A DNA stretch of 64,000 nt, taken from the NCBI GenBank assembly GCA_031415375.1, contig JANORP010000086.1:16569-80568 (forward strand), read 5' to 3'. The notes below the pieces were generated by a model. That model was not told where the DNA came from. It saw only the letters and a list, made by a program, of their open reading frames with translations, and made no database searches. Position numbers and translations under genes: made by a program. This DNA comes from Bacteroidota bacterium. GTDB taxonomy: Bacteria; Bacteroidota; Bacteroidia; J057; JADKCL01. Below, piece by piece: positions 18,084-24,941 of the stretch (its first letter is position 1; the number at the start of each line of letters is the position of its first letter).

Positions 18084-21000
18084 ATGCACGCACCAAGGCA
18101 GTATTCTCTTGAAAAGAAACCTCAGCCCAAGACACTAGCGCCAGCTGAGCCCGAACTCAACGGCCCTGTCATGGCTCCCCCTGCCTACACCGCACTCAGC
18201 GAGCAGGCAGAGTCGGCCGGTGCAGAGACTGTGCAGCGCAAGCAAGCTCCTGGATCTCAAGAACTTGGCCGATCAGAGGCCCCGCCCCAATTCAAGCTCG
18301 CAGCTGGCGCACCCTTCCAGTTCAAATTCAGCCAAGCTCCGCTTCAAATGAAGGCGGGCAATGCCGCAGGTGGTGGCAGTGGCGTAGCCGGCGGGCTACC
18401 AGATTCCGTCAAAAGCCAGATGGAGGGCGCTTTTGGCACCAGCTTCGACGATGTAAAGGTAAATGCCAATAGTAGCAAAGCCTCAGAAGTCGGCGCATTG
18501 GCTTACGCACAAGGCAACGAAATCCACTTTGCCCCTGGCCAATACAGCCCAGAATCCAAAGGCGGGCAGGAGCTACTTGGCCACGAACTCGCGCACGTCG
18601 TGCAGCAGCGCGAGGGCCGTGTGCAAGCCAATGCTGAAATCAATGGCATGGCTGTAAACAATCAGCATCACCTCGAAAACGAGGCCGATCAGTTGGGCGC
18701 AAAAGCAGCTGCATTTAGCGGCGGCGGCGCAGTCGCAAAATCTGCAGGAGGCGCGGGATCAGCAGGGCCAGTACAAGCCAAAATGGATCCCAAATCCAAA
18801 GATGGAGGCGACAAGAAAGGTGCTGCCGATAAGAAAAAGGACAAGGCTGGACGACAGATCCACCTCAACCCCGACCTACGCAATGCCAGCGATGGTTTTG
18901 GCAACGGTGACGGCCCAGATCAGCTTTCACCGCTCTATTTGAACCCAGACCACCGCAATGCCCTCAATGGCTTTGCCGACCCAGAAGCCGAGGTAAGCGA
19001 CAATAAATTGCACCTCAATGCAGACCAGCGCAATGCTCGCGATGGTTTTGCAGAATTGATCGAGGAAAAGGAAGAAGGTAAAGAAGGCGAAGAAAAAGGA
19101 AAAGATGCCAAGGCTGGTGGCGGCGCAGAAGGCGCATCCAGCACCCCAAGCGATGCCAATAGCGCTGAGGCTGGAGGACCAGAAGGGGCAGAATCGGCCG
19201 AAGGCGAACTTGAATCGGAAGAAGACAACGCCGAACAAGAGGCAGAAAATGAATCCCTTGAGGCAGATCAGGCAGCTGGTGAGGAAGATGCGCCAGCAGC
19301 TGAAACCCAAGATCCTGAAGCCAACTCCTCTGAAGAGGGTGCCGAAGGCGACGACAAACAAAAGGATGGCAAAAAAGCCGGAGGCAAAGATGCCAAGGGC
19401 AAAGGTGACGGTGCAGAAGGCGGTGGCGAGGGCAATGGCAGCGGCGTTGTAGGTGCCACAGGCGGTGGCGCAGCAGGCGCTGGTGAAGGCGGCGCGGGGA
19501 AAGGGAGCGGCAAAGGTTCTTCAGGTGGCAAAGGTGCAGCAGGCGGGATGCAGCCCATCGAGGTCGCCCCAGAGCAACGTGGCAACTTCGGTGAGGGCGA
19601 TGAACCCGAGATGATGCTGGTGAATGAAGCAGCATTGGCTGAGTTTGACTCAGGCCAGATTCTCAAGAAAGAAAGCGATGGCTCAGCCCTCGTCTTGTCG
19701 GGCAACGTACCTGCATCCCTAGGTGCAGGCGCAGACCAACCTGTGCAGCGCAAGCCCGATCCAGACAAAAAGGTGCCGATCAAAAAACCGGTTCCAAAAT
19801 CGAAGTCCAAGGAAATGATGGCCGCCAACCGCGAGAAAGCAAAAGCTTACGTCGCAGAGTTTGAGGCCGCTTCAAAATCGCAGATCGCCAGCGTCGAAGC
19901 CGCAAAAAGTGGCATCGCTGCCCAGATTCAAGCAGGTGCCAGCGAAGCCAAGTCGGCGATCCAGTCGGCCGCAGCCAGTGAAAAAGCCCGCGTACAAGCA
20001 GGCTTTGCAGCCCAAAAAGCCGCATTGAGGGCCGATGCTGCACGCCTGAAGGCCGCAGCAAGTGCCGCAGCAGAGTCGGCCAAATCAGCTGTATTGGCCA
20101 GTGCAGAGACCGCCAAGGGCAAAGTGGAAGCTGGGTTCCAAACCCAAAACGATGTCCTCGCGGCATTGGAGCCAGCCATGAAAGCCGAATTCACCAAAGT
20201 CTTCACCAAAGCACGTGAAGACATGATGAAGGATGCCAAAGAGATCGGCGAAAAAGGCAAAGAAAGAGGCAAAGCCTTGGCTGCCCAATATGATCAGGAG
20301 CCAACCCCAGAGCAAAGCACCGCACAAGACATCCTCAATGGCGGCGACTATGAAAAGAATCGCCACAAAGCCAAAGTCGAGGCAGCCATTGCAACTGGCA
20401 ACGGCTTCGCTGAGGGCCTCATCAAGTCGGCCACCGAGGAGGCCGACAAATTGCAGCAAGGTGGTGAGTCACAGTCACACGAGCACGTCACCAACTCGAT
20501 CCAGCAAAGCCGCCAGATCATCTTGCAATCCAAGACATCGGCCTTGCAGACCATTACCACACAGTCACAAAGTGCCATCACCAGCATCAGCAGCCAATAT
20601 ACCGCTGCCGCAGCTGGCATGGATTCAGCAGCCACAGCAGGTATCTCCCAGCTCGATGCACAGCAAAGCCAGGCACTTCAGGCCATCGACCAGACGGCCA
20701 ATACCAGGCTAGGGGCAGTAGATGCCACCGCCCAAGAAAAGATTCAGAACATCGAGTCACAGGTGCAGAGCGCGATCGACGCACTCAAAAGCCAAGTCAA
20801 TCGCACCATTTCAGGTGTCACATCCCGCAAAAACCCAGCTGCTGAAACTGTACACCATCAGTTGCATGCCGCGCAAGCCAGCATCGAGCGCGCAGCGGCA
20901 GATGGTTCAGAATTGGCCACAGAGGGTGCCTCGGCTTCTGCCAAAGGCATGCTGGAGATGGCAACCAAGACAGCTGCGGAACTCAAGCATACTGCAGCCT

Positions 21001-24941: not shown

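Follow-up and report, generated by a model that had tools for sequence, protein, structure and literature searches.

The 64,000-nucleotide stretch of Bacteroidota DNA analysed here (contig JANORP010000086.1; called the window below, with positions counted from its first letter) carries a giant polymorphic toxin gene that is read in a single uninterrupted frame. From its N terminus, the encoded protein consists of a DUF4157 head, hydrophobic glycine-zipper segments, a polar linker, a region with two short repeats (the pre-TNT region), a TNT NAD+ glycohydrolase, a conserved junction, a previously undescribed domain that we call module X, a helical stretch, and a C-terminal YwqJ-like deaminase. 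A gene for a MORN-type protein, remnants of other toxin cassettes, and an open reading frame (ORF) resembling candidate immunity genes of TNT toxins follow downstream (Table 1). We compared this locus with related ones in order to determine which parts of the toxin are constant and which can be exchanged.

Table 1. Features of the toxin locus, with positions in the window and, where calculated, GC content at third codon positions (GC3).
Feature	Residues	Position	Strand	GC3	Basis or remark
Giant polymorphic toxin ORF	1-2285	18084-24941	+		2285 residues, single uninterrupted frame
DUF4157/eCIS_core (PVC-metallopeptidase)	105-178	18396-18617	+		Pfam PF13699, E 4e-24, 85 bits vs cut-off 22
Hydrophobic glycine-zipper transmembrane segments	1079-1130 and 1157-1182	21318-21629	+		Kyte-Doolittle windows up to 2.97
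T/D/P/K-rich linker	1330-1425	22071-22358	+		Residue composition
Pre-TNT region, two APDGYxW...LPP repeats	1441-1559	22404-22760	+	0.74	DNA reappears downstream as orphan fragments
TNT NAD+ glycohydrolase	1560-1705	22761-23198	+	0.75	Pfam, AfNADase alignment, dN/dS
T/G-rich linker and junction motif GGGMKGKDVY (23265-23294)		23199-23294	+	0.50 (linker)	L005 homology stops at 23278
Module X	1728-1986	23265-24041	+	0.54	Alignment, AlphaFold2 model; previously undescribed conserved pre-toxin domain
Helical stretch between X and deaminase cassette	1987-2073	24042-24302	+	0.44 (0.437)	
Deaminase cassette	2074-2285	24303-24941	+	0.45	YwqJ-like deaminase at residues 2155-2272
MORN_2 (YwqK-type) protein, candidate deaminase immunity	205 residues	24954-25571	+	0.48	Weak Pfam match, co-mobility
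Orphan copy of toxin nucleotides 22523-22886		25786-26149	+	0.682	88.2% identity over 364 nucleotides
Two low-GC ORFs, 26221-26892 and 26958-27362	223 and 134 residues	26221-27362	+		Position, composition; weak HEAT match in the second
Second short scar, copy of toxin nucleotides 22605-22655		27829-27879	+		88% identity over 51 nucleotides
TNT-immunity-like domain of ORF 28930-30186	298-414	29821-30171	+		Hidden Markov model positions 8-121 of 124

The original prediction, made from the letters of this DNA, had described a giant DUF4157 toxin with an internal TNT domain and a terminal YwqJ-like deaminase, and a Pfam scan judged against gathering cut-offs found all three families above their thresholds. 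The TNT match (PF14021, residues 1601 to 1705) scores 69.9 bits against a cut-off of 27 (E 2.6e-19), and the deaminase match (PF14431, residues 2155 to 2272) 30.5 bits against 25.9 (E 4.9e-7); the HExxH motif of the DUF4157 domain reads HELAH (residues 167 to 171). The motifs listed in that prediction are in place, namely GWPPNRGF at nucleotide 22839, FDRFGG at 22902, GRALPQ at 22992 and NIQHELP at 23130 in the TNT domain, and HAE at 24735 to 24743 (residues 2218 to 2220) and PRCPNC at 24858 to 24875 (residues 2259 to 2264) in the deaminase. The glycine-zipper segments and the T/P/K/D-rich linker are also real by hydropathy and residue composition, with 10 GxxxG motifs within residues 1071 to 1250 and 23 T, 16 D, 13 P, and 13 K among the 96 linker residues. 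Additionally, the constant region (residues 1 to about 1727) holds low-complexity and apolipoprotein-like helical stretches. No Pfam family for an internal cysteine protease domain of the MARTX type matched the giant ORF at E 0.1 or better.

An exhaustive HMMER scan of 1.84 billion representative proteins with the 579 residues behind TNT recovered a 2175-residue protein (P0052) with DUF4157, TNT (residues 1619 to 1723), and a C-terminal EndoU domain. It is encoded on a JGI metagenome contig (L005) that is syntenic with the window and represents another allele of the toxin. Positions 249 to 8605 of L005 align with 14943 to 23278 of the window at 88.9% DNA identity; the homology is lost after nucleotide 23278 and resumes at 27891 in a shared stretch reaching 29127. 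The variable block between the two alleles therefore spans 23279 to 27890, which bears out the proposal that the stretch after TNT is exchangeable. At the protein level, the identity is 92 to 98% to about residue 1725 and 38% or less beyond it, and the tail is a deaminase in the window and an EndoU in L005. Word-indexed protein searches with the same 579 residues and with the module X alignment gave nothing useful, and a search of genome contigs with the pre-TNT/TNT segment returned distant TNT proteins only and no close genome. The short motif LNPDxRNAxxGF, found three times in the N-terminal low-complexity region of the toxin (residues 256 to 325, nucleotides 18849 to 19058), is kept in P0052.

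The same layout recurs with other tails. L008 (NCBI GCA_031424495.1) encodes a 2149-residue DUF4157…TNT-GGGMRGKDVY-X protein with a weakly RNase A-like tail, and L011 (ENA, positions 512 to 8756) a 2217-residue DUF4157…TNT-X protein with an unknown tail, behind which come a pentapeptide-repeat gene and then an orphan TNT; as in L005, head, TNT, X, and C-terminal domain lie in a single ORF in both. In L001 (Logan), a toxin cut at its 5' end reads TNT-X-EndoU, and beside it lies an orphan gene in which a whole TNT is joined to another tail. L006 (Logan) shows the end of a TNT, beyond a stop an X-EndoU annotated as a gene of its own, a 351-residue immunity-like gene, and then an orphan deaminase tail with a MORN gene. 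Compared with the window protein, that of L011 shows only 40 to 60% identity in the constant part, but 68 to 75% in the N-terminal half of X. These comparisons established the architecture, the break-points, and the exchange of cassettes. Judged by the aligned sequences, the constant region ends with TNT as its final domain.

Two other explanations of the tail have to be weighed at this point. According to the first, which builds on how the original prediction had read the locus, a TNT-ended toxin recently captured one foreign deaminase-plus-immunity block in frame and became a unique dual-warhead chimera. GC3 indeed drops sharply at the end of TNT, the deaminase and MORN genes form a mobile pair, and, of the 50 nearest TNT homologs, 44 have TNT as their final domain, with continuation beyond it confined to the closest few. 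However, the junction and X stand behind TNT in four or five other loci, including the 40 to 60% identical ortholog in L011, and the post-TNT region is a mosaic in which homology to L006 starts only at nucleotide 24305 and L011 is the closest relative of X in its N-terminal half. Instead of stopping after TNT, the toxins of L005, L001, L008, and L011 all carry TNT, junction, and X with varied C-terminal domains, contrary to a one-off capture; L006 has the same pieces, with its X-EndoU called separately. The "recent, unique" part of this explanation is largely refuted, and we hold the whole of it to be very unlikely. Because the junction and X follow TNT in other loci, including one as diverged as L011, the alignments indicate that the attachment of further domains behind TNT is ancient, common to the clade, and a recurring layout, and that the recent event is the exchange of tails behind a pre-existing junction.

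The second explanation is an assembly artefact that misjoined a TNT-ended toxin and an X-deaminase gene at repeated toxin sequence. Toxin-sequence repeats do exist in the locus, the source, a contig of 86,292 bp, is probably a draft assembly, the homologous X-EndoU of L006 is called separately, and an exact look-up in a collection of 15 billion proteins did not find the giant protein, with four neighbours from the same NCBI contig present; the giant ORF was probably uncalled, or called otherwise, in the source record. Yet the 6.9-kb ORF runs without a stop codon, the repeats are just 88% identical and do not lie at the break-point, and TNT, junction, and X are in frame in three independent assemblies (L005 from JGI, L008 from NCBI, and L011 from ENA). 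An artefact of this kind is hardly credible.

The base composition tells a compatible story with more steps than had been expected. In the toxin gene, GC3 is 0.72 over residues 1000 to 1731 versus 0.49 over residues 1731 to 2285 (Fisher p = 2.6e-17). The maximum-likelihood change-point within codons 1000 to 2285 falls at codon 1703 (nucleotide 23193); the Pfam TNT match ends two codons later (residue 1705, nucleotide 23198), and the comparative break at nucleotide 23278 lies 85 nucleotides 3' of the change-point. A GC3 switch directly after TNT was thus found as proposed, though the whole profile is stepped: the best single break over the entire ORF is at codon 1897 (nucleotide 23775; matched in 0 of 200 permutations), because GC3 is likewise low (0.51) in the N-terminal third. 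The profile is a series of several steps, one of which is at the end of TNT. In all compared related loci with the TNT-X layout, GC falls after TNT. The idea that low GC continues into the downstream immunity genes was right for three ORFs (0.452 in the MORN gene, 0.411 at 26221 to 26889, and 0.433 at 26958 to 27359), but the run is broken by a GC-rich island at 25694 to 26221 (GC 0.557), which duplicates part of the toxin gene as an orphan.

The variable block itself consists of pieces with separate histories. The MORN gene begins 13 nucleotides past the toxin stop codon; its product scores 25.7 bits for MORN_2, under the cut-off of 29.6, and the copies in L006 and L008 are faint matches only. 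MORN2 proteins carry a YwqK domain (bioRxiv 10.1101/534297). Window positions 24305 to 25637 are 91.9% identical in DNA to the orphan deaminase and MORN genes that lie downstream of the X-EndoU toxin in L006, where the orphan protein (P0051) is 94% identical to the window deaminase, and the pair persists as a remnant in L008. The H and E of the zinc motif H-[AS]-E and the two C of C-x-x-C are invariant among the few relatives aligned. These observations support the view that the deaminase tail and the MORN gene are a mobile pair, with the MORN protein as the candidate immunity factor, in line with the deaminase-plus-immunity cassette of the original prediction. Mobility of this pair was a part of the foreign-cassette claim that stood; a single block was not found, since the homology to L006 begins only at nucleotide 24305 and X is, in its N-terminal half, most similar to L011, whose C-terminal domain differs. 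Protein searches returned no homologs of the helical stretch (residues 1987 to 2073). Going by closest relatives, the post-TNT tail is a mosaic in which X, the helical stretch, and the deaminase part differ.

Downstream of the MORN gene, the orphan copy comprises the pre-TNT region and the start of TNT within an ORF at 25694 to 26224 and breaks off after GWPPNRGFINVKDGVL. The second scar lies where the variable block ends on its 3' side, just before the homology to L005 returns at nucleotide 27891. Orphans occur elsewhere as well: the L008 toxin is followed by several small genes, by a fragment of TNT, and by a copy of nucleotides 24851 to 26128 of the window, a whole TNT with another C-terminal domain is present in L001, and a deaminase with its MORN gene in L006. 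The orphans in the window, L001, and L008 show that incoming cassettes begin at their 5' end with pre-TNT/TNT sequence; the TNT-coding region serves as a homology arm. The two low-GC ORFs at 26221 to 26892 and 26958 to 27362, for which no homologs were identified, are probable orphan immunity genes of earlier cassettes, as their position and composition suggest. In the mechanism that we propose, tails would be replaced by recombination with cassettes bearing their own pre-TNT/TNT copy as the 5' homology arm, which would leave pre-TNT fragments and immunity genes stranded downstream as orphans. A variable C-terminal part on a constant N-terminal part, an adjoining immunity gene that travels with it, and orphan fragments downstream are all found here, as in polymorphic toxin systems. 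The protein is a DUF4157-headed polymorphic toxin with a constant region ending in TNT and an exchangeable tail made up of the junction, module X, a nucleic-acid-directed toxin, and its immunity gene, and we consider it probable that it carries one constant and one variable warhead.

Whether TNT is itself a weapon or a part of the stalk bears on how this toxin would work. Mutagenesis of AfNADase had identified R129, F137, and Q194 as essential, and D128, F130, and R148 line its nicotinamide site (PMC7955114). In the HMMER alignment to 6yge and 8r17, these correspond to R1609, F1627, and Q1685 and to D1608, F1610, and R1638 of the toxin, respectively, and all are kept, so the signature described in the original prediction is complete on profile alignment. 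The segment also matches fungal TNT-domain NADases by phmmer (E 5e-13). The ratio of nonsynonymous to synonymous substitution rates (dN/dS) of TNT against L005 is 0.058 at dS 0.45, similar to other parts of the constant region, with 0.027 in DUF4157 and 0.081 in the helical region. TNT is under purifying selection, and its catalytic-site residues are intact. Since TNT is normally a terminal toxin, as the 44 homologs ending there indicate, it would be expected to be a toxin here too, and it looks functional.

We also looked for an immunity gene of TNT. The genes directly 3' of four TNT-terminated toxins, namely a DUF6861-TNT (L009), a DUF4280-TNT (L010), one from Flavobacterium branchiophilum (L012), and a Shewanella Rhs-TNT (L013), are homologous to each other, encode 118 to 131 residues, and share the C-terminal motif FSFGEFQPGR[FY]. 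A hidden Markov model built from them matched 1 of 1212 ORFs in the window and the related loci, the ORF at 28930 to 30186 (E 4.6e-10). This ORF lies just past the stretch shared with L005 and has a flank-like composition (GC3 0.62 to 0.71); the L005 contig ends before the equivalent position. It fits the idea of a constant immunity for a constant toxin, as an association and not as proof. A copy of a sequence of about 100 nucleotides, present three times in the window at 77 to 84% identity (29018 to 29118, 36295 to 36394, and 42714 to 42777), lies inside the 5' part of the ORF, and its long N-terminal extension is doubtful for that reason. Residues 156 to 222 weakly resemble EndoU-immunity candidates of L001 (E 4e-4 to 4e-3), and the ORF may have arisen by the fusion of remnants, or its product may be a poly-immunity protein. 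Two neighbouring ORFs at 27950 to 28438 and 28476 to 28937 had been considered for the same role and were dropped in favour of ORF 28930-30186, as Pfam, NCBIfam, and PDB lent them no support. A BLAST comparison of the ORFs at 24.9 to 37 kb with L001 and L005 yielded no common immunity candidate, and NCBIfam named none of ten neighbour proteins.

Because of the retained catalytic residues, the dN/dS of 0.058, and the immunity-like ORF downstream, a protein with two warheads, as had been suggested, is plausible, with the toxic action of both domains predicted from sequence. Alternatively, only the C-terminal domain may be toxic, with TNT kept for a structural or targeting function within the stalk, as a regulator that senses NAD+, or mainly as a conserved recombination handle. 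Such a role would suit the orphan cassettes, whose 5' end is pre-TNT/TNT sequence, the role that conserved pre-toxin sequence has in other polymorphic toxins. It would also suit the finding that every variable tail has its own immunity gene and that no TNT-immunity-like gene is seen in the sequenced parts of L001, L008, and L011. However, a recombination handle alone needs no intact active site, and all catalytic-site residues are kept under the selection described above; moreover, the flank contains a homolog of the genes that trail TNT-terminated toxins. We regard a non-toxic TNT as unlikely, and continue with a TNT that acts as the constant toxin.

Between TNT and the variable toxin, the junction and module X are the conserved elements. 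The consensus of the junction reads …KVDGNDGGGM[KR]GKDVYP, and across the X family G-G-[MV]-[KR]-G-K-[DE]-V-Y. Identity between the window and L008 is 91% in the linker and junction (residues 1706 to 1727), 58% in TNT, and 40% in X. For the linker, the ratio of nonsynonymous to synonymous differences (pN/pS) between the two is 0.16 at ordinary synonymous divergence, measured on 22 codons only; together with the 91% identity, this suggests that the constraint acts on the peptide itself. Module X has about 260 residues, and the pattern invariant in the multiple alignment includes H, G, D, HExxE, and HD (H1814, G1815, D1847, H1854, E1855, E1858, H1915, and D1916 among the residues). The family is rare, with 16 matches at E 1e-3 or better in the exhaustive scan. 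It occurs with TNT in the window, L001, L005, L006, L008, and L011, and without TNT in P0064 and, by Pfam scan, in P0063 and P0066; the tails behind it are EndoU-like, deaminase, RNase A-like, or unknown. An AlphaFold2 model of X (predicted local distance difference test score (pLDDT) 81.5, predicted template-modelling score 0.83) shows a five-stranded sheet followed by long helices. A zincin or SprT-like fold was considered for it, and the Foldseek hits (probability up to 0.84, TM up to 0.38) were too weak to claim one; a relationship to DUF4157 was rejected (hhalign probability 0.25%). With modest confidence, we propose that the junction may be a processing or hand-over site and that X may aid the release or import of the tail, which would parallel the VENN junction and entry domain of CdiA.

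Putting these elements together, we suggest that this DUF4157 clade may combine a fixed NADase with a swappable nucleic-acid warhead, a junction for cleavage or hand-over, a module X that releases or carries the tail, and an immunity split into constant and variable parts, a fuller picture that is possible rather than probable. In the narrower explanation that we consider probable, TNT and the deaminase would each poison the target cell, TNT as the constant and the deaminase as the variable warhead, and the immunity-like ORF of the 3' flank would protect the producing cell from TNT. The protein might be cut near the junction, either by DUF4157 or by X, and X would then serve the release or entry of the C-terminal toxin. 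Export may proceed through an extracellular contractile injection system (eCIS) or another route encoded outside the window.

Several observations weigh against this interpretation. No TNT-immunity-like gene was found in the available DNA downstream of the L001, L008, and L011 toxins, and the immunity-like ORF of the window lies about 5 kb 3' of the toxin stop, not adjoining the TNT gene, with an uncertain true start. The structure model of the deaminase is of low confidence (pLDDT 66), and cytidine deaminases appear only among its non-significant Foldseek matches. Foldseek gave no significant match of the X model to PDB and BFVD entries, leaving X without a detectable relative there. The absence of the giant protein from the protein collection belongs here too. 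DUF4157 has been reported to be strongly linked to eCIS (PMC8213781; PMC11297309), and no Pfam family of eCIS sheath, tube, baseplate, or AAA proteins was found among the ORFs scanned, which comprised most of those with at least 120 residues up to about nucleotide 54.9 kb.

The surroundings of the toxin hold further genes of possible interest. Directly upstream lie a DO-GTPase2 gene (14819 to 15973) and a gene for a 607-residue protein of unassigned family (15992 to 17815), both kept in L005 (236 to 3121), and before them two genes for caspase-domain proteins (10501 to 12492, with an RHS-repeat match, and 12655 to 14913). The caspase-domain, DO-GTPase2, and 607-residue genes may belong to the same conflict system as the toxin. 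Downstream, the region 32497 to 36090 contains a second DUF4157 toxin of 943 residues, whose C terminus is low in GC from about nucleotide 34300 and has no Pfam name, with a PoNi immunity gene directly 3' of it (35329 to 36090, GC 0.40) and an extra 455-residue PoNi-like gene upstream (30740 to 32107); the locus therefore holds two polymorphic toxins with the same type of head. Six tandem paralogs of about 400 residues (37394 to 45310, minus strand) share 30 to 38% mutual identity, and 4 of the 6 have sub-threshold HEAT-repeat matches. Near the start of the window, sorting domains of the type IX secretion system, a pointer to Bacteroidota, lie at 1189 to 2681, and a SocA/Panacea-domain antitoxin-like gene (3167 to 3694) with a small partner ORF (2721 to 3176), both on the minus strand, is probably an unrelated toxin-antitoxin pair.

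The usual picture of polymorphic toxins is one delivery stalk with one exchangeable toxin, and here an apparently intact TNT stands directly before the exchange point in at least four related loci. If the toxin is indeed a two-hit weapon with a constant and a variable part, a rival cell would need two immunities. The joint effect of NAD+ depletion and nucleic-acid attack, the processing of giant DUF4157 toxins, with the junction and X as candidates, and the use of toxin-coding sequence as a homology arm in cassette exchange all become addressable in this system. Two families come with it as well: the rare new domain X, whose structure is predicted with confidence, and a set of candidate immunity proteins against PF14021-type NADases.

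Among known systems, the PVC-metallopeptidase polymorphic toxins (PMC3482391; PMC8213781) resemble this one in their N-terminal DUF4157 with HExxH, a linker of more than 1000 residues, a variable C-terminal domain with a downstream immunity gene, orphan modules, and allelic exchange of the C-terminal part. Unlike them, the present toxin has a complete second toxin domain (TNT) in its constant region and module X before the variable toxin, and no eCIS genes were found among the ORFs scanned in the 64-kb window. TNT-terminated toxins, such as CpnT/TNT of M. tuberculosis and the Rhs-, PAAR-, and DUF6861-TNT effectors of type VI secretion systems, have the same NADase domain and active-site residues, and the window contains a homolog of the gene that follows them; they end in TNT (44 of 50 homologs), whereas about 580 residues follow it here. 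In CdiA-CT toxins, a conserved VENN junction is followed by an entry domain and then a nuclease, and no toxin domain is known to precede the junction. The likeness to our toxin lies in a conserved junction that opens a bipartite exchangeable part, with a recurring module before a nucleic-acid-directed toxin, and in the downstream orphan cassettes; the two have no sequence relationship, and an entry role of X would be an analogy only. YwqJ and YwqK of Bacillus subtilis, an LXG toxin with a MORN-type partner, share the YwqJ-deaminase family with its H[AS]E and PCxxC motifs and the MORN_2 neighbour, but delivery here is by a giant DUF4157 protein in place of LXG, and our MORN_2 match is below the cut-off.

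Experiments on the WHIX "double-blade" effectors of type VI secretion systems (PMC12135965) have shown that a single polymorphic effector can hold two distinct toxic domains and require two cognate immunity proteins. The parallel is two toxin domains with two immunity proteins, known from sequence as domains and candidate genes in our case, and the differences are another secretion domain and system, toxins that flank WHIX instead of standing in series at the C terminus, and, on our side, one constant and one exchangeable toxin. Toxins with more than one toxin domain had already been noted in 2012 (PMC3482391); because of that report and the one on WHIX effectors, a two-warhead toxin is not a new category. 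What appears to be new is the split into constant and variable parts, in which TNT is the last constant domain and doubles as the recombination arm, together with module X, the conserved junction that opens the tail, and the family of candidate immunity genes for TNT.

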